Source: Bacteroidales bacterium
Lineage (GTDB): Bacteria > Bacteroidota > Bacteroidia > Bacteroidales > WRLA01
Length of the DNA stretch: 64,000 nucleotides
Reading direction: 5' to 3'
NCBI GenBank assembly: GCA_963676415.1
Contig: OY781097.1
Span: forward strand, 3,972,965-4,036,964
Position numbers and translations under genes: made by a program. Position 1 is the stretch's first letter. Every line of letters begins with the position of its first letter. Positions 21,338 through 33,260 of this stretch are shown in pieces. The notes under the pieces are model-generated. The model saw only the letters and a list, made by a program, of their open reading frames with translations. It was not told where the DNA came from and did not search any database.

Positions 21338-21523
21338 GGGAGATTTGTATATTTACACATTATGGACAAACTCTAATTATACGAAGCACACACAGGACGG
21401 TAATTTTATTACGGTCGTCTTTCCTTTCTACTCTTATTTTCAAAAGTTTTTAGCTCTTTCTTCCCGCTCTTCCCAATAATTCCTTAAATTTACTCCAAAT
21501 CAATTCCAAGCAACAGAGCCTAT

Positions 21524-24500
21524 ATGAAAACTGAATTATTTAAACTATCCCATCCGGAAAAAAGGGAGCTGATTACCGAACAATTATATCCCGCCACGGC
21601 ATTTGCCAATAATCCCTTTCTGCTTCGTTTTAAAGGACTTGCAAAAGCAGAATATCTGGAAACCGCACTATTGAAAATTGTGGAAACGCACGATGCCCTG
21701 CGCACGCAATTCACACAAAAAGAAGGCGTATTCTATCAGTATGTAGCTCCTTATCAGGATTTTGTACCCGATTATCTCGATTTTTCGGATAATTATGGCC
21801 GCAAGCGCTTTCATCAGTGGATCGACAAAGCACGAAACCATGTTTTCCGTTTTACCGACAGCCGTTTGTTTTATGCCGCCATCCTCAAATTACCGGACGA
21901 TGAACACGCTATTTTCCTGAATGTACATCATATCCTTTCTGATGGGTTTACTTTCCATCTGCTGATCCATCAATTGGAGTACGTTTATAAACAATGTGTT
22001 GCTGGTGCGTCCACCGATTTGCCCGGGACACCTTCGCATTTGCAATATCTTGATTTTGAAAAAGAATATAAGGAATCATCGGCTTTTAAGCGCGACAAAT
22101 CCTATTGGGAAGGTTGTTTTGATGAACTGCCGCCCGAACTGGTCCATCCCATGATCCGCTCCACAAAAGCTAATATTAAGGTAAAACACAGGGAATTGAA
22201 GCTGGATGACCAAACCGGGCGCGATGTGCTGGAATTCTGCCATATTCACAAAATTTCCTATTACAATCTGATGCTTGGGGTATTCAGTATTTATATGAGC
22301 AAAGTAAGCCGCAATGAGGAAATTGCCATCGGAAGTATGACGCACAACCGCTACCGGCCGGAAATGAAACAAATGGCCGGGATGTTCGTCAATGCTTTTC
22401 CCTTTGTTTCATCGCCTTTGGAGGATATGAAAGCCATTGATTTCCTGAAATCGACCAATGACGATTACCGCTATATCCTGAAAAACCATTCGGCTTATCC
22501 TTTGGATATTATGATGGACGACCTGCGCAAAAAACACGATACGCTGCACAATCTAATGAATTATATGCTAATTGGGCAGGGAGACTACAGCACGGAGCTT
22601 TTCAAAGCAGAAATCCACTTCCCTGATTATGAACAACCACCCTTCCAGTTGATCCTGAACCTGTTTTTTAACGACAGTCCGGGCGGTTTCCGCTTGCTCT
22701 ATGTTCATCCTGAAGAAGCTTTTAGCAAACAAGATATACAACATATTCACAATCAATTAGAAGCTTTACTTAAAGCAATACTTGATAAACCGGAAACAGA
22801 AATAGGTGCTATTCCTTTTTGTCCGCAAGCCGAAAAACAAGAACTGTTACGGCAGGTCGGAAGCAGCATAAAACCTTTGCAGGATGAAAAAACCGTGGTG
22901 GATTTATTCCGCGACACGGCACAAAAATTCCCGCAGAATACAGCGCTGGTTTGCGATAAAAAGCAAATCACCTATGCTGAATTGGATGCAAAAAGTGAGC
23001 GTATTGCTGCTTTGCTCAAACACAAAGGGGCGCAAAAAGGCGAAATTATTGCCGTACTCAGCGATCCGGATATGGCCATGGTGTGCGGACCGCTCGCAGC
23101 ATTGAAAGCTGGCTGTGCCTATATGCCCATTGATCATCAGTATCCTGCTGAGCGTGTAGCTTTTATGCTTAAGGATTCTTCATGCCGATTTATCCTGAGC
23201 CGCAATAAATTCCTTGAAAACCTCAGTGATTTTGATGGCGAAATTATTGATCTAGACCATCTTCCCGAAAATATTGAGCCACAAAAAGCGGAAAGCACGA
23301 ATTGGGACGACCCAGCCTATATTATTTATACGAGCGGCTCAACAGGAAAGCCCAAGGGGGTTTTAATTGGCCACCGTGCGTTGCGTTACCGCATGGACGA
23401 TATGTTGCAGCGCATAGAAGCCAATGAGACAGACCGTTTTACGAAATTTGCCGGATTTGGATTTGATGCTTCTGTTTTTGAAATTTTTCCGGCTATCCTC
23501 TCCGGAGCTGCATTGCATATCCTGAATGATGACCTCAAACGCAATGTGAAGCAGCTTTTTAATTATACCATTGAAAACCAAATTACAAAGAGCTTCCTGC
23601 CGACACAGTTCCTGGAGCAGTTTATGGAGATGAAAGCAGAGGGCTGTCTAAAAATCGTTTATACCGGCGGCGATAAACTGCAGCGTTTTACCAAAAGCTC
23701 CTATCGGGTATTTAATTTTTATGGCCCTACAGAGGCTTGCGTTTATGCCACTTGCCATGAAGTGGATCATATAGAAGATAACATCCCGATTGGCGAAGCT
23801 GTGCTGCATACGCGCATTTACATCCTCGATAAGCACCAAAATCCTGTGCCACAAGGCATTGCAGGTGAACTTTGTATTGCTGGGGAAGGTCTGGCCATGG
23901 AATACCTGAACCTGCCCGAAAAAACAAAAGAGGCATTCATCAACGATCCTTTCTACGAAGGCGGGAAAATGTACCGCACTGGCGATCTGGCCCGCTATCG
24001 GATGGATGGAAAAATCGAATTCCTGGGCAGGATTGATTTTCAGGTAAAAATCCGTGGATTCCGCATCGAACCAGTTGAAATTGAGCGCGTAATGCTCCAG
24101 TTTACGGATGTGCGCGAAGTGGTTGTCGTGCCCCGAAAGGACAAAAATGACAAAGCCTACCTTTGTGGGTATTTTACTTCCTCACGCAAAATTGAAAAGA
24201 AACAACTCACTGATTTTCTGGGAAAAGCACTGCCCGATTATATGATCCCGGCATTTTTGATCCAACTCGATCAAATGCCAATTTCTACCAGTGGGAAAAT
24301 CGACCGTAAATTATTGCCTGAACCCACTGTGGAGCGAGAGCTTGTCCCTGCAGAAAATGGTGTGGAAGAAAAGCTGCTCGCTTTCTGGAAAGAAATATTG
24401 GGACTTGAGGAAATAGGGGTTACGGAAAATTTCTTTGATCTGGGTGGTCATTCCCTGAAAGTGACTCAGTTACAGACTGAAATACAAAACTTCTTCCATG

Positions 24501-27500
24501 CGGATATCCCTTTCTCACAATTGTTTGCCCATGCCAACATCCGCGAACAGGCAATACTGGTAAAATCAGCGCGCAAGGTTTCCGTTGATACCATCGAACG
24601 TCTGGATGCCCGCGATTACTATCCGGTTTCCTCCGCTCAGAAACGCCTGGTTTTCTGGGAGGAAATGAGCAATGCCGGACTGATGAACAATATTCCACTG
24701 ATTATCAAGCTTAAAGGGAAAGTTAACGAAGCTGATATTAGCTCAGCCATCGACAAAATTATCCAACGCCATGAATCTTTGCGCACAAGTTTTGATATCA
24801 TCAATGGGGAAGCGGTACAGATTGTGCATGATAATCTACGTTTTAAAAAGAAAATAAAAGATATAAAACCCACGGAGCTGGATGCATATATCGAAGATTT
24901 TGCCCAACCGTTTGATATACGCAAAGCACCTCTTTTCCGTATTCATTTGCTTCGTTTTTCAGCTGATGAATATTGCCTGCTCATGGATTTCCATCATGCA
25001 ATATTTGATGGCAGCTCCTACCTCCTGTTTTTTAATGAATTGTGTGCAATACTGGAAAACAAGGTTTTACCAACACTTCATGTGCAATATCGTGATTTCG
25101 CCGACTGGCAAAACCGCATCCATATTTCGGATATGATGCAGGAACACGAACAATGGTGGATGAACCTTTTCCGCGATGAAGTCCCTGTTCTGGATCTGCC
25201 AACGGATTATCCGCGCCCTGCCGTTTTGCAGCAGGCAGGCAAGACCTACAGCACTTTGCTTTCGAAAGAAATGTCGGCAGGCATACACACTTTTGCTATA
25301 GAACACCAAATTACCCTCTACCCTCTTTTTGTAGCTGTATTCAGCAGTTTATTAGGACGTTACGCTTCCAAAGACGATTTGGTTCTGGGAGCAGGAATGG
25401 CGGGACGCGCGCATGTGGACGTGCAAAACCTGATCGGGATGTTTGTAAACACCATCGTATTGCGCAATAAACCTGTTGCAGAGAAAAGCTTTACGGACTT
25501 TATGCTGGAAGTACAGCAAAACTTTCTCGAAGCTTTTGATCATCAGGATTATCAGTTTGAACGCCTGGTTGAAAAACTCAAGATCGAGCGAGATTCCAGC
25601 CGTAACCCGCTTTATGATGTCGCCCTTGTTTATCAGAGCATGGGCTTTCCAAAACGCAATATCAACGGCCTTCAGCTTACCGCTGAGGAACTTCCTGCTC
25701 CGGCAGCTCATGCCGACATCATGCTGGAAGTCGTGGAAGAAGGCGATCAGTTCCGCCTGAACTGGGAATACCGTAGCAGTTTATATCGTGAAGATACCAT
25801 TGAGCGCATGTGCAGGCATTTCGTTCAGCTAATGGGCAATATTCTGCATGATCCAAATGCCAAAATTGGTGAATACGAAATAGTTACACCTACTGAAGAG
25901 CAAATGTTGCTGCATGGTTTCAATCAAACGGAAGCTTCCTGGCCGGATACGGAATGCGTACATTATATCATTGAGCAGCATGCAGCACTCAATCCGGATC
26001 ATATCGCACTTACATTCCGCGATCAAAAGATGAGCTATGGCGAGATGAACCATAAAGCCAATCAACTGGCGCATAAACTGCGCGGCATGGGCGTAAAACC
26101 CGATGATTATGTGGGTATTATGATGGACAACAGCCTGGAAATGATTGTATCCATTCTGGCCATTCTGAAATCCGGTGGTTGTTATGTGCCTATGAAACCC
26201 GATTTCCCTGCCGACCGTGTACGCTATATGCTCGAAAATTGTGGTGCCCGTTTTATGGTTTGTCCGAAAAATTATCAGGAAAAAGCATTGGGATTCAATG
26301 GTGCATTTATTGATGTTTCAGACCCTCAGCTTTTTGAAGGAGATTTACCAAACCCGGAACATATCAACAAGCCGTCCGATCTGATTTATGTAATCTATAC
26401 ATCCGGCTCGACCGGAAAACCCAAAGGTGTCATGCTGGAGCACCGCAACATCACGCGCTTGTTTATCAATAGCGAAATGCCTTATAAACTTGATAATAAG
26501 GATGTTTGGAGTATGTTCCATGCCTTTTCGTTCGATTTTTCTGTTTGGGAAATATTCGGGGCTTTGCTTTATGGTGCACGACTGCTCATTGTTCCCAAGG
26601 ATGTGATTATCAATCCGTCCAGCTTTTTGCAGATGCTGAAAGATGAAAAAGTGACCATTCTGAGCCAAACGCCAGGAGCTTTTTATAACCTGATCGAAGA
26701 AGATCTGAAAACCGGAGACCACGATCTCGCTATCCGCTATGTAACCTTTGGAGGTGAAGCACTTAAGCCTGCCTTGCTGGCTGACTGGCACAAAAAATAT
26801 CCGGATAGCCGACTGATCAATATGTACGGAATTACGGAAACAACGGTGCATGTAACTTTCAAGGAAATAGGTGATTATGAAATTGAGAACAATATTTCGA
26901 ATATTGGTGTGCCCATTCCTACCCTGCGCACTTATGTGATGGACGTGCGTCAGAAGCTGATGCCTATTGGTGCTCCGGGTGAAATCTGCGTAACCGGCGA
27001 TGGACTGGCACGTGGCTATCTCGGATTGCCGGAAATGACGGCCTCACGATTTATCCCAAATCCATATCTGCCCGATGAAAAAATCTATCGTTCGGGCGAC
27101 TTGGCACGTATGCTGCCCAATGGCGAAATGGAATATCTGGGACGTATCGACTTCCAGGTGAAAATCAGGGGATTCCGTATTGAACTTGGCGAAATTGAAA
27201 ACCGCCTCCTCACCCACCCCGATGTGCATGAATGCATTGTGCTGGCGCGCGATGACGAACATGGCGATAAATACCTCATTGCTTATCTGGAAACCGAAGA
27301 ACATCTCGCTGTTGGCGATATCAAGGAATTTCTGCGAAAAGACCTGCCCGATTATATGATTCCGGGCTATTTCATTTGCCTGTCCAAATTCCCCATGAAT
27401 GTCAATGGTAAAGTTGACAGAAAAAACCTTCCGCTGCCCGATGAACATATTGAAACGGGTAAAGAATTTGTTGCGGCACAAAATGAAGTACAAAAGAAAA

Positions 27501-29407
27501 TTGCCCTGGCTTTTGAGAAAATTCTCGCTATCACGGAAGTAAGCATAGAAGACGATTTCTTTGATATTGGAGGGCACAGCCTCCGTGCCGTAAGCCTTGT
27601 GGCTGAGCTTCAAAAAGACTTTGAAGTGAGCGTCAACGATATTTTTGAATACCGGACTATTGAGAAGCTGGCTGTCAACATCAAGGAGAAAACGCTGGAC
27701 ATCAGCAAAAAACTGGCACAAATCCCCGAAGTACTGCTGAAGCAGGCAGAGCGCTCCATGGCTTTTGAAAAATCTGAAGCCTATACAAAACGTATGCAGG
27801 CTTATCGTGACCATTTTAGCCGCTACGATCAGCTCGAAGCCCGCAACGATAATGATTACCGCAAAATACTGCTAACGGGCACAACGGGTTATCTTGGCGT
27901 TCATCTTCTGCATGAACTGCTCAGCGATGGCACTACCGAAATTTATGTGCTGGTACGTGGAAAAGATACTAATGACGCTCAAAACCGCCTCAGCAGGCAT
28001 ACTTCCTATTATTTTGGCCGGGATTATTGCCACGATTATGAAGAACGTTTGCATGTGCTCTGCGGTGATCTGGGACAACCTGATCTGGGTCTGGGCGCTG
28101 ATCTTTATCATGATCTTGCCACAAAACTTGATGCCGTTTATCATCCGGCTGCCCTGGTAAAACATTATGGAGATATTGAAGTATTCCGCAAAAATAATGT
28201 GGAAGCTGTGGCTTATCTGCTCGATCTGGCGCAAAAAAGCCGTAAAAAAGACTTCCATCATGTGAGCACGCTTTCGGTTTTCAATGGAAGCGTGGAAGGC
28301 AGGCATGATGTGCTCTATACCGAAGATGATTATGATAGTGGACAGCAGTCGGGCAATTATTATGCGCAAACCAAATTTGAAGCCGAAAAACTAGTGATGG
28401 ACGCGCGCAGTAATGGTCTGAACACCAGCATTTACCGAATTGGCAATGTGTCTGTAAACAGCCGCACCGGCAAATTGCAATCGGATGTGGAAGGCAATGC
28501 ATTCTACAGCGTGCTGAAAGCTTATGTGAATATTGGCGCAGTACCTCAGGAGTTTAATGAAGTGGAATTTGCCTGGGTGAATGAACTTGCTGCATCTATC
28601 GTGTTGCTTTCAAAACAAACTGCGCTCAACAACGCCTGTTGGCATTTATGGAATACAAACAAGATACAGCTGGCCGATGTGCTGTCCGATAAAAAGCTCA
28701 ATTTAAACATAGAACCTATGGATTTTGAAGGTTTTGCAGCTTATCTTGCCCGTCTTTATGATGTAACGGCATTTAAACCACATATCGAAAAGTTGTTGCT
28801 GCATATGGGCTGGATTGACTTGTTGAATGCACGTCCGGATGAAGTGCTGAAGGAAATCACCATTGAACATATTATTTCTGAACGCACCGATTTCGTACTG
28901 CATAAACTGGGTTTTGTCTGGCCGGCCAATGATGCAGCACTATTGCGTAAAATGCTGATTCAGGCCCTGGCAGAACGCATGGCCTTTATGCGACAGGAAA
29001 ATCCTTTCGGAAAAATCAGTGAAGAACTGGCCGAAGCCCTTGCTCCCATTATGCGGCGCAAATACTACAAAGAAGGCGAAGATGTGCTCTGGGAAAATGA
29101 AAAAGCGGACCACCTCAATATCATTGAAGATGGATATGCCGAACTGAGCCGTCATTCTGCTACCGGATGGCTGGGCACTATTGGGCTGAGCCAGAAAGGC
29201 GGTATGCTCGGACTGGAAAGCCTTACAGCCGATAAACGCTCGGCAGTAATAGCCGAAGCAATTTTGAGCGGAATCACTCTTTATGAAGTCGATAATGAAA
29301 AACTCAAACTGTTGATGCAGCAAAACCCTGCAATAGCGATGCATTTCATCGATTTGATGGGCGACAGCATCAGGAAGCTTGAGCGGATGATCGTTAACTT
29401 GGGCTAA
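21524..29407 (+). CDS. Bimodular NRPS: starter C-A-T-C-A-T-thioester reductase (R)-cNMP-binding-like domain
   Basis: C motifs HHILSDG and HHAIFDG; A motifs YTSGSTGKPKG x2 and YRTGDL/YRSGDL; T motifs FFDLGGHSL and FFDIGGHSL; R motifs 'LTGTTGYLG' and 'YAQTK'. The last ~140 aa ('YYKEGEDVLWENEKADHLNIIEDG..GGMLGLESL..RSA..NPAIA') resemble a Crp/CAP effector domain. Confidence 0.93.
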   Translation: MKTELFKLSHPEKRELITEQLYPATAFANNPFLLRFKGLAKAEYLETALLKIVETHDALRTQFTQKEGVFYQYVAPYQDFVPDYLDFSDNYGRKRFHQWIDKARNHVFRFTDSRLFYAAILKLPDDEHAIFLNVHHILSDGFTFHLLIHQLEYVYKQCVAGASTDLPGTPSHLQYLDFEKEYKESSAFKRDKSYWEGCFDELPPELVHPMIRSTKANIKVKHRELKLDDQTGRDVLEFCHIHKISYYNLMLGVFSIYMSKVSRNEEIAIGSMTHNRYRPEMKQMAGMFVNAFPFVSSPLEDMKAIDFLKSTNDDYRYILKNHSAYPLDIMMDDLRKKHDTLHNLMNYMLIGQGDYSTELFKAEIHFPDYEQPPFQLILNLFFNDSPGGFRLLYVHPEEAFSKQDIQHIHNQLEALLKAILDKPETEIGAIPFCPQAEKQELLRQVGSSIKPLQDEKTVVDLFRDTAQKFPQNTALVCDKKQITYAELDAKSERIAALLKHKGAQKGEIIAVLSDPDMAMVCGPLAALKAGCAYMPIDHQYPAERVAFMLKDSSCRFILSRNKFLENLSDFDGEIIDLDHLPENIEPQKAESTNWDDPAYIIYTSGSTGKPKGVLIGHRALRYRMDDMLQRIEANETDRFTKFAGFGFDASVFEIFPAILSGAALHILNDDLKRNVKQLFNYTIENQITKSFLPTQFLEQFMEMKAEGCLKIVYTGGDKLQRFTKSSYRVFNFYGPTEACVYATCHEVDHIEDNIPIGEAVLHTRIYILDKHQNPVPQGIAGELCIAGEGLAMEYLNLPEKTKEAFINDPFYEGGKMYRTGDLARYRMDGKIEFLGRIDFQVKIRGFRIEPVEIERVMLQFTDVREVVVVPRKDKNDKAYLCGYFTSSRKIEKKQLTDFLGKALPDYMIPAFLIQLDQMPISTSGKIDRKLLPEPTVERELVPAENGVEEKLLAFWKEILGLEEIGVTENFFDLGGHSLKVTQLQTEIQNFFHADIPFSQLFAHANIREQAILVKSARKVSVDTIERLDARDYYPVSSAQKRLVFWEEMSNAGLMNNIPLIIKLKGKVNEADISSAIDKIIQRHESLRTSFDIINGEAVQIVHDNLRFKKKIKDIKPTELDAYIEDFAQPFDIRKAPLFRIHLLRFSADEYCLLMDFHHAIFDGSSYLLFFNELCAILENKVLPTLHVQYRDFADWQNRIHISDMMQEHEQWWMNLFRDEVPVLDLPTDYPRPAVLQQAGKTYSTLLSKEMSAGIHTFAIEHQITLYPLFVAVFSSLLGRYASKDDLVLGAGMAGRAHVDVQNLIGMFVNTIVLRNKPVAEKSFTDFMLEVQQNFLEAFDHQDYQFERLVEKLKIERDSSRNPLYDVALVYQSMGFPKRNINGLQLTAEELPAPAAHADIMLEVVEEGDQFRLNWEYRSSLYREDTIERMCRHFVQLMGNILHDPNAKIGEYEIVTPTEEQMLLHGFNQTEASWPDTECVHYIIEQHAALNPDHIALTFRDQKMSYGEMNHKANQLAHKLRGMGVKPDDYVGIMMDNSLEMIVSILAILKSGGCYVPMKPDFPADRVRYMLENCGARFMVCPKNYQEKALGFNGAFIDVSDPQLFEGDLPNPEHINKPSDLIYVIYTSGSTGKPKGVMLEHRNITRLFINSEMPYKLDNKDVWSMFHAFSFDFSVWEIFGALLYGARLLIVPKDVIINPSSFLQMLKDEKVTILSQTPGAFYNLIEEDLKTGDHDLAIRYVTFGGEALKPALLADWHKKYPDSRLINMYGITETTVHVTFKEIGDYEIENNISNIGVPIPTLRTYVMDVRQKLMPIGAPGEICVTGDGLARGYLGLPEMTASRFIPNPYLPDEKIYRSGDLARMLPNGEMEYLGRIDFQVKIRGFRIELGEIENRLLTHPDVHECIVLARDDEHGDKYLIAYLETEEHLAVGDIKEFLRKDLPDYMIPGYFICLSKFPMNVNGKVDRKNLPLPDEHIETGKEFVAAQNEVQKKIALAFEKILAITEVSIEDDFFDIGGHSLRAVSLVAELQKDFEVSVNDIFEYRTIEKLAVNIKEKTLDISKKLAQIPEVLLKQAERSMAFEKSEAYTKRMQAYRDHFSRYDQLEARNDNDYRKILLTGTTGYLGVHLLHELLSDGTTEIYVLVRGKDTNDAQNRLSRHTSYYFGRDYCHDYEERLHVLCGDLGQPDLGLGADLYHDLATKLDAVYHPAALVKHYGDIEVFRKNNVEAVAYLLDLAQKSRKKDFHHVSTLSVFNGSVEGRHDVLYTEDDYDSGQQSGNYYAQTKFEAEKLVMDARSNGLNTSIYRIGNVSVNSRTGKLQSDVEGNAFYSVLKAYVNIGAVPQEFNEVEFAWVNELAASIVLLSKQTALNNACWHLWNTNKIQLADVLSDKKLNLNIEPMDFEGFAAYLARLYDVTAFKPHIEKLLLHMGWIDLLNARPDEVLKEITIEHIISERTDFVLHKLGFVWPANDAALLRKMLIQALAERMAFMRQENPFGKISEELAEALAPIMRRKYYKEGEDVLWENEKADHLNIIEDGYAELSRHSATGWLGTIGLSQKGGMLGLESLTADKRSAVIAEAILSGITLYEVDNEKLKLLMQQNPAIAMHFIDLMGDSIRKLERMIVNLG

Positions 29408-29601: not shown

Positions 29602-29675
29602 GGACCCGTAGCATAATTGGATAGTGCACCTGACTACGGATCAGGAGGTTAGGGGTTCGAATCCCTTCGGGTTCA
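29602..29675 (+). tRNA. tRNA-Arg(ACG)
   Basis: Acceptor GGACCCG/CGGGTTC, anticodon arm CCTGA-CTACGGA-TCAGG, T-loop GTTCGAATC. Confidence 0.96.
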
Positions 29676-29685
29676 CTTGAAAGAC

Positions 29686-29720
29686 AGCCTGTTACAAAGA
29701 AATTTGTGACAGGCTTTTTT
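29686..29720 (+). terminator. Intrinsic terminator after tRNA-Arg
   Basis: agcctgttacaaa-gaaa-tttgtgacaggct plus T-run. Confidence 0.8.
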
Positions 29721-29888: not shown

Positions 29889-30452
29889 ATGGCGAACGAT
29901 ACAACTTTGCAGGACATCATTGACTCACGTATTTTAAACAATCGGAAAATCCTGCTCTGGGGGCAGATCGACGATAAACTGGCAAAATACGTCACAGAGC
30001 GGATGTTATATCTTGAAATGATCTCACCGGAACAGGAAATTCAGTTAATAATCAATAGTCCAGGTGGTTATGTAACTTCAGGTTTTGCAATTTATGACAC
30101 CATGAACTGCATCAGCAGCCCGGTTTCGACGGTTTGTACGGGTTTGGCGGCTTCCATGGCGTCGATCCTATTATCTAATGGCATAAAGGGCAGGCGCTTT
30201 GTTTTGCCTTTGGCACGGGTGATGATCCATCAGCCCAGCGGTGGTGCAGGAGGATCTGCTTCGGATATTGAAATCCAACTGGACGAAATCATCAAAACCA
30301 AAAAACTCGGTGCTGCTTTGCTGGCAAAAAACTGTGGACAGAGCATCGAAAAAGTCCAGGAAGACTTTAACCGCGACTACTGGATGTCGGCCGAGGAATC
30401 GGTTAAATATGGTATTGTTGACAGTATCATGAACCAAATGGTTGAAAGCTAA
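29889..30452 (+). CDS. clpP: ATP-dependent Clp protease proteolytic subunit (short N-terminus, possibly a second-type paralog)
   Basis: 'INSPGG', catalytic 'AASMAS', 'IHQP', 'RDYWMSAEES..YGIVD'. Confidence 0.93.
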   Translation: MANDTTLQDIIDSRILNNRKILLWGQIDDKLAKYVTERMLYLEMISPEQEIQLIINSPGGYVTSGFAIYDTMNCISSPVSTVCTGLAASMASILLSNGIKGRRFVLPLARVMIHQPSGGAGGSASDIEIQLDEIIKTKKLGAALLAKNCGQSIEKVQEDFNRDYWMSAEESVKYGIVDSIMNQMVES

Positions 30453-30454
30453 GG

Positions 30455-31285
30455 TTATGGCCTGTTGAATTTTACGGACAAACCCAGCGTGATGCTCAGG
30501 TTTGTATTGTGCGCATCCGAGCTGATACCATAGTAGTTCTTAAGCTCACGTACAAGTGGGGAATCCGGAATTTTTACCCAGGTATTCGCGTTGAGTGCAT
30601 CGATTTTTGCAAGCCCATAGCTGTACCTGAAACGTGCAATAATATCTATGCTCCCGCTTATTTTTTGCTTGAATCCCCCGCCAATAAGCAAGCCGTAATC
30701 GAATGATGTGGTATGTCCGGGAGTGGCATCAGGGATATCGTGCCAACAATTGCACATCGGCTGGCCAGTATCTTCACTCGTCCATGATCGGCACTCTTCA
30801 ATAAAAATATAGCTTCGCATCCAAATTCCACTATATATACCCGCTTCTAAAAAAATGCGGGCTGATTTTAGCAGATAACGCCTGTAAACCAAAGGGATTA
30901 CCAGATAATCATTTGTAAGTTTCTTAAGATAGCTGTAATGTTGATCGCTTCCGTAATCGCTTGTCCAGCTTGTATGGTATTTCAGATTATTGCCTTTTGT
31001 TTCAAAATAAAAACCCACCAATAAACTTTGCCTGGCATCCAAATGATACTCAGCATCGACCCCAAACGTCAATCCTTTATATGATTCTCCTTCATATTTC
31101 GGACTGATATAAAGAAAATTATAGTGAGAATCGAACGGATTCGTTTTCACAAAAAAGGGATCACGATTTATAAAGCCTGAGATATTCAGGCCATAATGAA
31201 AATTAAGGGAAAAGCCTGTGCTGTCCTGTGCATAAGACGCGATAATTAAAAGGCTTAAAATGATTAAGGCGTAGAGTTTTTTCAT
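30455..31285 (-). CDS. Outer-membrane beta-barrel (porin/PorT-like family) protein, intact paralog
   Basis: Signal peptide, 'DYLVIPL', 'FDYGLLIGGG', 'ARFRYSYGL'. Confidence 0.7.
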   Translation of the reverse strand: MKKLYALIILSLLIIASYAQDSTGFSLNFHYGLNISGFINRDPFFVKTNPFDSHYNFLYISPKYEGESYKGLTFGVDAEYHLDARQSLLVGFYFETKGNNLKYHTSWTSDYGSDQHYSYLKKLTNDYLVIPLVYRRYLLKSARIFLEAGIYSGIWMRSYIFIEECRSWTSEDTGQPMCNCWHDIPDATPGHTTSFDYGLLIGGGFKQKISGSIDIIARFRYSYGLAKIDALNANTWVKIPDSPLVRELKNYYGISSDAHNTNLSITLGLSVKFNRP

Positions 31286-31487: not shown

Positions 31488-32604
31488 GTGTATTAATTAT
31501 TTAATAAGTTAACTAATTTTCAATGCATCACCAGTATAAGTCCATCGAAAGGGCTTAGCACGTGTCTCATTGTATGTTTTCACGTATTCAATAAGTTGAG
31601 AAGCCAATTGTTCTGATGACTTCCAAACACCTCCTTTTACAACATCCTTTGTTAATATATTGAACCATATCTCGACTTGATTCAACCAAGAAGAATACGT
31701 TGGGGTGAAGTGCAATGTGATTTTCCTTTTTCCTTTCAGCCACTCCTTAACGTCTTTATGTTTATGTACCGAAAGGTTGTCTGCAATTATGTGAAGCTTT
31801 TTGTTTCTGTATTTCCTATCAAGTGATTTTAAGAACTTTAAGAAGTTTTCTGCATTATTTGATTTAATTGTTTTGGCTGTTACTTCACCTGTATGCACTG
31901 CAAGTGCCGCAATTAACGAAACAGTTCCGTTGCGTTTGTAGGTGGCTGTTTGTCTTTTCGGATTTCCTGGCCGTAATGGCAACTCTGGCTGAGTTCTATC
32001 GAGTGCCTGTATTTGAGTTTTTTCGTCAACACAAATAACCAAAGCGTTTTCTGGTGGCGACATGTAAAGCCCAACAATGTTGGTCATTTTTTCTTCAAAC
32101 TCTGGGTCTTTTGACTTGCCGCACCAATACTCAATTTTATGTGGCTTTATGTCTGCTTGTTTAAGAATCTGAAATACTTTAGACTGGCTAATCCCTACTT
32201 CTTTGGCGATACGTTCTTGAGACCAGTTAGTGTATCCGTCATCTGGCTTTGTGCAGGCTTTCTCAATTACCATAGCCTGTTGTTCTGCAGTGATAACCTT
32301 TGGTTTTCCACTTCGGTAAGCATCCTTCAAACCTGTAATACCTTGCTCGCGAAATCGTTGTCTCCATTTATTTACTACAGGTCTACTAAGCCCTGTTTGC
32401 TCTACTATTTCACTCATCGATAAACCTTGATCGGATAATATAATTATCTCGGCACGCTCAACGTAACGTTTTTCAAGTTTGTGTGAACGGCTCATGGAAA
32501 GAAGCTCTGCCTTCTCTTCCGTTGTTATCTGAATGGGTTTTCCTATCCTTGCCATGTGGCAAAGATAATAAAATATTAGTTAATTAACTTTATAATTATA
32601 ACAC
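31488..32604 (-). mobile_element. IS630-family insertion sequence, copy 2 (1117 bp)
   Basis: TA duplication (31486-87 and 32605-06) in CTAG. Colinear with copy 1; differences seen at 31620 and 31758. Confidence 0.95.
31509..32555 (-). CDS. IS630-family transposase
   Basis: 348 aa, identical to copy 1 except a Q/H change in 'HKQKD/HKHKD'. Confidence 0.95.
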   Translation of the reverse strand: MARIGKPIQITTEEKAELLSMSRSHKLEKRYVERAEIIILSDQGLSMSEIVEQTGLSRPVVNKWRQRFREQGITGLKDAYRSGKPKVITAEQQAMVIEKACTKPDDGYTNWSQERIAKEVGISQSKVFQILKQADIKPHKIEYWCGKSKDPEFEEKMTNIVGLYMSPPENALVICVDEKTQIQALDRTQPELPLRPGNPKRQTATYKRNGTVSLIAALAVHTGEVTAKTIKSNNAENFLKFLKSLDRKYRNKKLHIIADNLSVHKHKDVKEWLKGKRKITLHFTPTYSSWLNQVEIWFNILTKDVVKGGVWKSSEQLASQLIEYVKTYNETRAKPFRWTYTGDALKIS

Positions 32605-33260
32605 TAGCTGATTTGTGAGCATAAACTTATATCCAGCGCCTAAAACCAGTCCATAGTCAAAGGATGTGGTATGGTTTTCAATGCCCTCATGATAGAAAAA
32701 CATATGGGATTTCCATGGACTGCTTTCACCTTCATACAGTATGGATAAATTTTCTGCCTCCGAAACATAACTCTTTAACCAAATGCCACCATAAAAGCCG
32801 GCTTCCAGAAACAATTTGCGGTTTTTCAGGAAATAACGCCTGTAAACCAAAGGAATGACCAGGTAGTCATTGTTTATTTTCCTCTGAAATTCAAGTTCAT
32901 TATAAGATCCAAAAGGTGTTGTCCAGCTGGAATCAAGATGTTGGTTATAGCCTTTTGCTTCCAGATAAAAGCCTAATACAACGCTTTGTTGTGCATTAAT
33001 ATGATATTCGGCATCAAGTCCTAGTATCGGTTCGGTTTGAGCATCATCAATATAACTGGTGCCAATATTCACTGAATGCACAATATACTGCTGGGGCTTA
33101 TAAAGATTCCGAAAAGCCGGATCGCGGTTCACAAAATTTGAAAAACTGATGCCCATCTGAAAACCTATGGAAAAGCCTGTACTGTCCTGTGCATAGGATG
33201 GAATAGTTAAGATGAATAAAATAAGAATACTGTAGAGTTTTTTCATTGGTTTTAACTTGA

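Follow-up and report, generated by a model that had tools for sequence, protein, structure and literature searches.

A cyclic-nucleotide-binding-fold domain on the terminal reductase of a Bacteroidales non-ribosomal peptide synthetase: a candidate regulatory sensor

The 64,000-nucleotide stretch of Bacteroidales DNA analyzed here (the window; contig OY781097.1 of assembly GCA_963676415.1) encodes a two-module non-ribosomal peptide synthetase (NRPS) whose terminal thioester reductase (R) is followed by a domain of the cyclic-nucleotide-binding (CNB) fold. There is next to no doubt that this domain and the family of R-CNB synthetases around it exist. Far from being confined to this genome, the fusion belongs to a sizeable family, undescribed in the literature searched. 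Judged from alignments and a tree, the tails belong to a separate CNB clade whose members also sit on terminal condensation (C) domains and on MFS/HEAT-repeat proteins, and this clade is without the canonical cyclic-phosphate-binding arginine. Our preferred reading, to which we give a probability of roughly 45%, is that the tail is a regulatory sensor for a small molecule other than cAMP or cGMP and would gate either product release or the overall activity of the enzyme.

The NRPS gene (positions 21524-29407 of the window, on the + strand as are all features below; ATG start; 2627 residues) was assigned the order C-A-T-C-A-T-R-CNB from the open reading frame list, its translation and Pfam, which returned Condensation twice, AMP-binding twice with AMP-binding_C, PP-binding twice, NAD_binding_4 (residues 2117-2346) and cNMP_binding. 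The two PF00668 matches (585 bits) are the N-terminal C1 (21542-22849), with HHILSDG at residues 135-141, and C2 (24611-25912; residues 1030-1463), with HHAIFDG at residues 1157-1163. The adenylation domains (TIGR01733, 826.7 bits; cutoff 317.4) are A1 (22901-24319; a TIGR01734-like match at residues 460-932) and A2 (25973-27412; PF00501/PF13193, residues 1484-1963), and their codes, DAFFYGFVYK and DFWSTGMVHK, both end in K. Carrier domains T1 (24368-24553; PF00550, residues 949-1010) and T2 (27491-27679, boundaries approximate; the second PP-binding stretch) present the phosphopantetheine serines S977 and S2019, each within GGHS. The R domain (27839-28978; PF07993, 175 bits) was located by this profile and by fold matches, and holds the nucleotide site TGTTGYLG (2118-2125) and a T2249, Y2280 and K2284 triad. 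Both HHxxxDG motifs, both serines, the nucleotide site and the triad are identical across the four closest full-length homologs. The earlier note, made from the sequence alone, had described C-A-T-C-A-T-R with intact catalytic motifs, and the Pfam domains and the invariance of the motifs bear this out: by these measures the protein is an intact two-module enzyme, and its R domain looks catalytically competent.

The A1 code reads as branched-aliphatic/Ile-like, and that of A2 is identical at 8 of 10 positions to the canonical Thr code DFWNIGMVHK; as a check on the A2 columns, in relatives the same alignment columns yield the canonical codes for Thr and for Asn. A starter (lipo-initiation) C domain, which opens RupA-like N-acyl dipeptide aldehyde synthetases, is no more than a putative assignment for C1, which scored best against the elongation C domains BacC, PvdL and LgrA (~75-80 bits) and lower against the solved starter C domains RzmA and SrfAA (~48-50 bits). 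A PF00668 search of the genome found this to be its sole NRPS, and the N-terminal position of C1 in it implies that the donor for C1 is supplied in trans. The host genome has one ACPS-family gene, in a 259-residue frame, as a candidate PPTase for the carrier domains. An (acyl-)Ile-like-Thr dipeptide aldehyde is the probable product; R domains can stop at the aldehyde or go on reducing to the alcohol.

The enzyme resembles the AusA/PznA type (aureusimine, A-T-C-A-T-R), which likewise joins two NRPS modules to a terminal NAD(P)H thioester reductase. The AusA profile NF047350 gave the best NCBIfam match of the present protein (1681.9 bits, below the equivalog cutoff of 2500), and the R domain of AusA ranks among the closest folds to the R domain here; unlike AusA, the enzyme carries an additional N-terminal C domain as well as the C-terminal CNB domain. 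RupA-type synthetases (ruminopeptin), the dipeptide-aldehyde NRPSs of gut bacteria, share the C-A-T-C-A-T-R order and differ in that the present enzyme has the CNB tail and comes from an environmental Bacteroidales MAG. To our knowledge, a CNB domain is absent from the published AusA and RupA architectures. Dipeptide aldehydes and pyrazinones are documented products of bimodular reductase-terminated NRPSs (PMC12327764). The best fold matches of residues 2106-2490 were MxaA (myxalamid), CpkC TR and an archaeal NRPS T-R (E 1e-24 to 1e-26, TMt 0.76-0.81), all with the same GxxGxxG and Thr/Tyr/Lys motifs. Those proteins end with R, whereas here its final helix runs on into the CNB domain; none of the solved R domains in the structural comparison is followed by one.

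Some 137 residues lie past the R domain. The earlier note had placed about 140 extra residues at approx. 28990-29407 and proposed to compare them with cNMP_binding by profile and structure; the CNB-fold domain maps to residues 2491-2627 (28994-29404) and is supported by PF00027, AlphaFold, Foldseek and dN/dS, with the Pfam cNMP_binding core (PF00027) at residues 2513-2601 (29060-29326). PF00027 matched the full NRPS with 28.3 bits (gathering cutoff 27.5) over profile positions 2-89 of 89 and the isolated tail with 32.9 bits. A family profile of 26 tails matched the CNB domains of PKG, PKA-R and Crp in the PDB (E 1e-37 to 1e-10). AlphaFold modelled the tail as a CNB beta-barrel (pLDDT 89.2) in the order N-helix, 8-stranded barrel, short P-helix, and B and C helices. 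Foldseek matched this model to the CNB domains of PKG, Crp and GlxR with probability 1.00, the closest fold being the cGMP-binding PKG CNB-B (TM 0.87-0.91, rmsd 1.5 A).

A single helix forms both the end of R and the start of the CNB domain, as its N-helix. A didomain model of R-CNB reached a pTM of 0.84, possibly dominated by the large R domain, and a pLDDT of 88. The R domain of a Paenibacillus protein ends within tail residues 1-27. At the other end, the C-terminal helix is full-length (~25 residues) with a conserved L..L.VN.G ending; the NRPS stops directly after it, and all homologs finish at the same ...VNLG position. No HTH family was found in the tail up to E 10, in agreement with the earlier claim that an HTH is missing. 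A concealed HTH downstream of the CNB domain is excluded by the lack of any profile match and by the mere 194 bp between the stop codon and a tRNA-Arg.

Other NRPSs with R and cNMP domains, for which a search had been suggested, do exist: of the 150 best clusters at 50% identity, at least 55 have a T-R-CNB terminus, and a search for family tails gave 33 matches below 1e-30. These synthetases carry one to five modules and come from Bacteroidales, Syntrophomonas, Wallbacteria and Eremiobacterota MAGs, a patchy spread across several bacterial phyla, mostly uncultured. Across the phylum the fusion was found in 1 of 401 sampled genomes, with no second copy among the 400 other species representatives. 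Three full-length homologs share 68, 62 and 33% identity over the tail, which diverges at a rate like that of the other domains. In this lineage the CNB part has a dN/dS of 0.024-0.054, compared with 0.04-0.10 in the other domains, and is under strong purifying selection. The codes of the last A domain are diverse across the family (Thr, Asn and others), so the tail is not tied to one particular terminal amino acid or class of product. A full-text literature search found no description of an R-CNB fusion.

A CNB tree that also took in Crp and tandem-CNB proteins contains a 96/91 split uniting all 63 of 63 R-CNB tails, 2 of 2 C+CNB proteins and 8 MFS/HEAT+CNB proteins; Crp and tandem-CNB proteins fall outside it. 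Because this CNB type is attached to unrelated output proteins, it looks like a regulatory module. The hallmark of the clade, in our 59-tail alignment, is a GWxGT motif (GWLGT in the NRPS; residues 2548-2552, 29165-29179) on an extended beta4-beta5 hairpin, which is 5 residues longer in family tails than in PKG. Its W occurs in 59/59 tails, the two G in 57/59 and 56/59, and the T in 50/59. The motif is common to the C+CNB and HEAT+CNB relatives as well, which makes an R-domain-specific interface unlikely.

The equivalent of the phosphate-binding cassette (PBC), GLESLTADKRSAVIAEA (residues 2563-2579; 29210-29260), is non-canonical in the tail alignments, with the family consensus G-E-E-S-L-x4-P-S-S-V-T-A-E-A. 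The cassette of canonical cAMP/cGMP receptors, G-E-x-A-L...P-R-[ST]-A with an invariant Arg, is not what the NRPS tail has: CNBs outside the clade retain P-R-[ST]-A whereas the clade has Pro-Ser-Ser there, and the column of the canonical Arg is Ser or Ala (S/A2573) in 51/59 tails. Other pocket residues are kept, namely G2563 (53/59), E/D2565 (43/59), T/S2576 (44/59) and E2578 (47/59). The 'GLE' (2563-2565) and 'RSA' (2572-2574) reported in the earlier note are both present. 'RSA', however, which it took for a Crp/CAP-type signature, only resembles the canonical phosphate clamp, since R2572 falls in the column of the Pro, one position ahead of the canonical Arg; it stands 9 residues past the PBC Gly, against 10 in PKA and 11 in CAP. 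Arg occupies this column in only 6/59 family tails, and one close homolog has Gln and one distant homolog Glu. The suggestion that the ligand may not be cAMP gains support, albeit not through the argument from GLE versus GE; the clade-wide Pro-Ser-Ser is the better basis.

The six family contexts inspected showed no conserved cyclase, regulator or other signalling gene. The only recurrent neighbor is an Sfp-type PPTase, together with an MFS gene in one clade, where it lies immediately upstream of the NRPS (loci L022 and L023). In the window, as at a further family locus (L027), housekeeping genes surround a solitary NRPS gene. A scan for riboswitches and other known RNA elements around the gene found only the adjoining tRNA-Arg, and scans for promoters and terminators did not exceed the shuffled background. 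Elsewhere in the host genome there are five homologs of class III cyclases.

The arrangement of a CNB module that is joined to, or governs, a catalytic output domain has parallels in PKA-R, PKG, Epac and HCN, which share the fold; the tail differs from them by P-S-S in place of the P-R-[ST]-A clamp and by the extended GWxGT hairpin. The cAMP-gated protein acetyltransferase of mycobacteria is a further precedent for a CNB-controlled enzyme, and no report of an NRPS release domain as the output of a CNB was found in the literature searched. The barrel and long C-helix are also shared with the Crp/FNR family (FNR, CooA, NtcA, DNR, PrfA), certain members of which respond to other ligands and not to cNMP. 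The sensor domains of DNR, NtcA and FNR are among the sequence and fold matches of the tail, which, in contrast to that family, has no HTH DNA-binding domain and is covalently joined to an enzyme. A physical tie between CNB and the production or export of secondary metabolites is on record for CAP_ED (CNB) domains on long-type bacteriocin C39-peptidase ABC exporters and for CNB proteins in geosmin clusters (PMC4558948); in these cases the CNB domain belongs to a transporter or to a stand-alone protein and not to an NRPS megasynthase.

If the tail is a sensor, the CNB domain would act as a modular C-terminal allosteric module, with a ligand other than cAMP/cGMP sitting in the still-conserved pocket. 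The signal could pass via the helix common to the end of R and the CNB N-helix, and via the B/C-helix lid; reductive release would be switched on or off by the CNB domain, and the output of aldehyde or alcohol product gated thereby. This reading is supported by the full-profile Pfam match, the PDB profile matches and the confident model, by the conserved fusion with its low tail dN/dS, by the recurrence of this CNB type on output proteins of unrelated kinds, by a pocket that is conserved though non-canonical, by the didomain model, by a tail that does not track product chemistry, and by an R domain that appears competent. Against it, the conserved pocket region could be structural, the didomain pTM might mostly reflect R, and the fusion is rare in the phylum. 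We advance only tentatively, and with more doubt than belief, the broader proposal that R-CNB and C-CNB would be the first built-in allosteric switches of NRPSs, in which the P-S-S/GWxGT clade would bind a non-cyclic-nucleotide metabolite and open or close release, and that the same clade would control the MFS/HEAT transport proteins.

The main rival, unlikely in our view but deserving serious weight, is a ligand-free architectural role in which the C-helix, the GWxGT hairpin or both dimerise or oligomerise the synthetase or stabilize R. The long, full-length C-helix with its conserved end is also the dimerisation element of the Crp family, no signalling gene is conserved beside family members, and the invariant Trp at the tip of the hairpin is better explained by contact with a protein than with a ligand; these points also count against a sensor. 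The loss of the ligand-clamping Arg throughout the clade adds to the case for this rival. On the other hand, a brace specific to R would not be expected on terminal C domains and MFS/HEAT proteins, the PBC-equivalent residues are conserved where drift is expected in a pure scaffold, and NRPSs are mostly monomeric.

Improbable, to our mind, is a docking or recruitment module that binds a partner protein (an exporter, a tailoring enzyme or a membrane site) and not a metabolite, as X domains and COM domains do in other NRPSs. The exposed hairpin and the extreme C-terminus are both conserved, CNB domains of a sister clade are attached to MFS transporters, and at two loci the gene just before the NRPS encodes an MFS protein; yet no partner gene is shared by the different contexts, and the NRPS stands alone at two others. 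Slightly less probable still is a canonical second-messenger switch, in which cAMP or cGMP would be bound via R2572/S2573/A2574 and E2565 and release coupled to the cyclic-nucleotide level. The Arg or Lys at 2572 in this lineage ('RSA', 'RAA') with a Glu after the PBC glycine, the cyclase homologs of the host and the PKG-like fold are in its favor, but the offset and variability of position 2572 and the P-S-S type of the entire clade are not. A lost stop codon that fused the remnant of a Crp-like gene as a non-functional tail, for which nothing speaks beyond a Pfam score just over the cutoff, can be dismissed given dozens of divergent homologs with an identical end point, a dN/dS of 0.02-0.05 and a confident fold. 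Two of the outcomes that the earlier note named as refutations, a one-off fusion and a tail that fails to model as a CNB barrel, are thus contradicted.

The output of NRPSs is known to be controlled by transcription, by precursor supply and by helper proteins such as MbtH-like proteins. We know of no ligand-sensing domain inside an NRPS megasynthase, and a full-text literature search found none. The R-CNB tails define an Arg-less CNB clade, and if the tail merely dimerises the enzyme it would still be a new structural element of NRPS termination modules, though of narrower interest. A conserved sensor-fold domain on the release domain of at least 55 clusters would offer a direct, testable instance of an assembly line gated after translation. 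Should the preferred reading of the tail as a sensor be true, product output would be controlled post-translationally inside a single polypeptide, the domain would be a portable switch for engineered NRPSs, and the ligand or deletion of the tail may offer a handle to wake the 'silent' single-gene clusters of uncultured anaerobes.

The gene at 21524..29407 (+) is a single unbroken ORF of 2627 aa, in which Pfam places two Condensation domains, two AMP-binding domains with AMP-binding_C, two PP-binding domains, NAD_binding_4 (residues 2117–2346) and a full-length match to cNMP_binding (PF00027; residues 2513–2601, profile positions 2–89 of 89). This bears out the earlier note, which had read an NRPS with an extra C-terminal cNMP-binding-like (CNB) domain. 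The catalytic motifs it had called intact are present in all NRPS domains and do not vary among the four closest full-length proteins; in the reductase (R) domain, GxxGxxG and T2249/Y2280/K2284 are unchanged across 19 diverse members of the R-CNB family. The modelled R domain resembles those of MxaA, CpkC, an archaeal NRPS and AusA by structure comparison. AusA is also the best NCBIfam match, but the 1682 bits fall short of that family's cutoff (2500), and the protein is therefore not an AusA ortholog.

Ten-residue codes were extracted from alignment columns anchored on GrsA numbering, giving DAFFYGFVYK (Ile-like) for A1 and DFWSTGMVHK, 8/10 to the Thr code, for A2. The extraction is validated by relatives, in which the same columns yield canonical Thr (DFWNIGMVHK) and Asn (DLTKIGEVGK) codes. 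Judged by the last A-domain codes, the terminal amino acid varies across the family. C1 is closer to ordinary elongation C domains than to solved starter C domains, which leaves N-acylation of the product plausible, not proven.

The tail is a genuine CNB domain. PF00027 scores 28.3 bits on the full protein (gathering cutoff 27.5) and 32.9 bits in a scan confined to the last 200 residues. With E allowed to reach 10, the tail still shows no HTH family, as the earlier note had read. A profile of 26 tails matches the CNB domains of PKG, PKA-R, Epac and the Crp family in the PDB (E 1e-37 to 1e-10). AlphaFold modelling of the last 177 residues (mean pLDDT 89.2, pTM 0.77) gives N-helices, an eight-stranded barrel with a short P-helix, and B and C helices, as expected for a CNB domain; Foldseek places this model on PKG CNB-B (TMt 0.87–0.91, rmsd 1.5 Å) and on the effector domains of Crp, GlxR and Mtb-CRP (probability 1.00). 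The R-CNB didomain model is also confident (pLDDT 88.1, pTM 0.84), and no solved structure spans R and CNB together (TMq ≤ 0.61). In the model of the tail, a long helix (tail residues 21–41) runs into the CNB N-helix, and a Paenibacillus NRPS match confined to tail residues 1–27 places the normal R terminus inside it.

A word-indexed tail search found three further proteins of 2628–2629 aa with an identical Pfam set and tail identities of 68, 62 and 33%; their identity in the CNB part (66, 59 and 29%) falls in step with the divergence of the C, A, T and R domains. When 1.84 billion representatives were searched exhaustively with a profile, 33 matches fell below 1e-30. When NRPS domains were mapped onto the best 150 matches, 60 carried the R+CNB pair, with the CNB at the extreme C-terminus in 55, some of these being fragments. 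Architectures range from C-A-T-R-CNB (about 1500–1630 aa) and C-C-A-T-R-CNB (about 2000 aa) through two modules, the commonest form (about 2610–2660 aa), to three (about 3620–3640 aa) and four to five modules (4895 and 5238 aa). The named members belong to Syntrophomonas, Ca. Wallbacteria, Ca. Eremiobacterota and Bacteroidales MAGs or to an anaerobic-digester bin, and every one is annotated solely as “amino acid adenylation domain-containing protein.” Against three syntenic relatives (91–96% aa identity), dN/dS is 0.024–0.054 for the CNB part and 0.04–0.10 for the other domains. The fusion is rare: in an even sample of the phylum, the window's own genome is the only one of 401 species genomes in which the tail is part of a giant frame, the other matches being Crp-sized or 490–690-aa proteins that share the CNB part only. 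Close homologs, the wider family, taxonomic spread and selection exclude the accidental one-off fusion or artefact that the earlier note had allowed for; R-CNB NRPSs are a real, conserved family.

The pocket departs from the canonical one. The phosphate-binding cassette of cNMP receptors reads G-E-x-A-L-x4-P-R-[ST]-A, its Arg clamping the cyclic phosphate, and the equivalent tail consensus is G-E-E-S-L-x4-P-S-S-V-T-A-E-A, with Ser or Ala at the Arg position in 51 of 59 tails, in line with the suggestion that the ligand may not be cAMP. “GLE” (2563–2565) and “RSA” (2572–2574) are both present, but “RSA” is a look-alike of the clamp, since R2572 aligns with Pro, one residue ahead of the canonical Arg, and homologs have R, Q or E in its column. 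Residues G2537, E2540, S2545, G2548-W2549-x-G2551-T2552 and G2563 are (near-)invariant in the 59 tails (W in 59/59), the GWxGT lying on a β4–β5 hairpin five residues longer than that of PKG.

A maximum likelihood tree of 120 CNB domains splits (support 96/91) into a Crp-type plus tandem-CNB side and a side with all 63 R-CNB tails, P0105, P0106, eight short fragments and eight MFS/HEAT-repeat+CNB proteins. CNB domains outside this clade retain P-R-[ST]-A. On the tree split and this cassette difference, the tails belong to a distinct Arg-less CNB clade that caps the C-terminus of unrelated output proteins. The metagenomic proteins P0105 (645 aa; GWAGS, P-S-S) and P0106 (713 aa; GWLNS) are condensation-domain proteins ending in this CNB subtype, confirmed by Pfam; both nest within the R-CNB clade, and the tail therefore also occurs away from reductase termini. 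P0109, P0114, P0127, P0132, P0135 and P0154 (750–1012 aa) combine HEAT repeats with a C-terminal CNB, two showing a weak, sub-cutoff MFS match. As the sister group of the NRPS tails they likewise have the Arg-less P-S-x cassette, some also GWEGT, and they make up a second output class of the same putative sensor.

The genome (4.86 Mb, one contig) has this NRPS as its sole NRPS, one ACPS-family PPTase (259-aa frame) and five class III cyclase homologs. The window neighbours are housekeeping genes (argB-like kinase, OTCase, typA, ppk1, AhpC/TSA protein, DUF481); tRNA-Arg(ACG) follows 194 bp after the NRPS gene (29602–29676), with a strong terminator-like hairpin beyond (29686–29715). In a distant clade of Bacteroidales/Bacteroidetes MAGs (L022, 12–11194, and L023), an R-CNB NRPS 37% identical to ours is encoded by a compact operon (class-V aminotransferase-like PLP enzyme, MFS transporter, NRPS, Sfp-type PPTase), after which comes an S41 peptidase gene on the opposite strand. 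Two further contexts have a PPTase gene on the opposite strand, just downstream of the NRPS gene, and in one more the NRPS stands alone, as in the window. Among the R-CNB gene contexts examined, neither a cyclase nor a regulator recurs.

Directly downstream of the NRPS and tRNA lies a second ClpP gene (29889–30452 (+), 187 aa) with its active-site Ser/His motifs (GLAASM, MIHQP); another ClpP in the genome (G000:C1:4628790) scores better. The related loci L018 and L019 have no ORF matching it, and L018 has a 1170-aa SNF2-family helicase downstream of the NRPS. With a peptide-aldehyde synthetase next to it, this ClpP could be a protease copy of the resistance type, or its position could be chance at a variable spot linked to the tRNA. 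A DDE_3/HTH transposase gene (31509–32555 (−)) separates outer-membrane β-barrel genes (30455–31285 and 32596–33246) that are directly adjacent in L018 and L019, and is therefore a recent insertion. In close relatives, DUF481 and the NRPS are separated by an additional gene, which in L018 (1008–2393 (−)) encodes a 461-aa protein that, by its C-terminal sequence, looks like a T9SS-sorted secreted protein; the window has only 186 bp there, and a contig of run X3 has its joint at 21365/21377. Run X7, a poly(A) marine metatranscriptome, has short contigs that match the gene along 21851–29144 at about 90–99% identity, including the R-CNB junction (28898–29144), weakly suggesting that a close relative of the gene is transcribed, with DNA carry-over possible. 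The sequence also occurs in runs whose labels are algae and activated-sludge metagenomes, a hint at the habitat.

With the domain, its fold, conservation, clade and non-canonical pocket established, we put slightly under even odds (about 0.45) on a modular regulatory sensor. The tail would sense a ligand other than a cyclic nucleotide, and its ligand state would control reductive release or overall turnover of the NRPS. We favour this reading because unrelated effectors are capped by one CNB clade, the pocket has kept its residues though they differ from the canonical set, a helix links the tail to R and the didomain model is confident, and the tail is independent of product chemistry. The main rival, itself rather unlikely, is that the C-helix and hairpin dimerise or stabilise the enzyme without a ligand. 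Partner docking by the tail seems quite improbable. A true cAMP/cGMP switch in the window's lineage has a slim chance. The observation in the earlier note is confirmed, and its interpretation partly supported.

No description of an NRPS, reductase or megasynthase fused to a cNMP, CNB or CAP_ED domain was found in the searchable literature, of which coverage was incomplete, and the R-CNB architecture must already be listed in domain databases; “undescribed” therefore holds for the searchable literature only. Gating of enzymes by CNB domains is known in general. The nearest published analogues tie such domains to natural-product machinery: ABC exporters of bacteriocins bear CAP_ED domains, and geosmin clusters encode CNB proteins (PMC4558948). 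The R-CNB NRPS combines two known things, a reductase-terminated NRPS and a CNB module whose regulatory role, like the function of the family, we infer.
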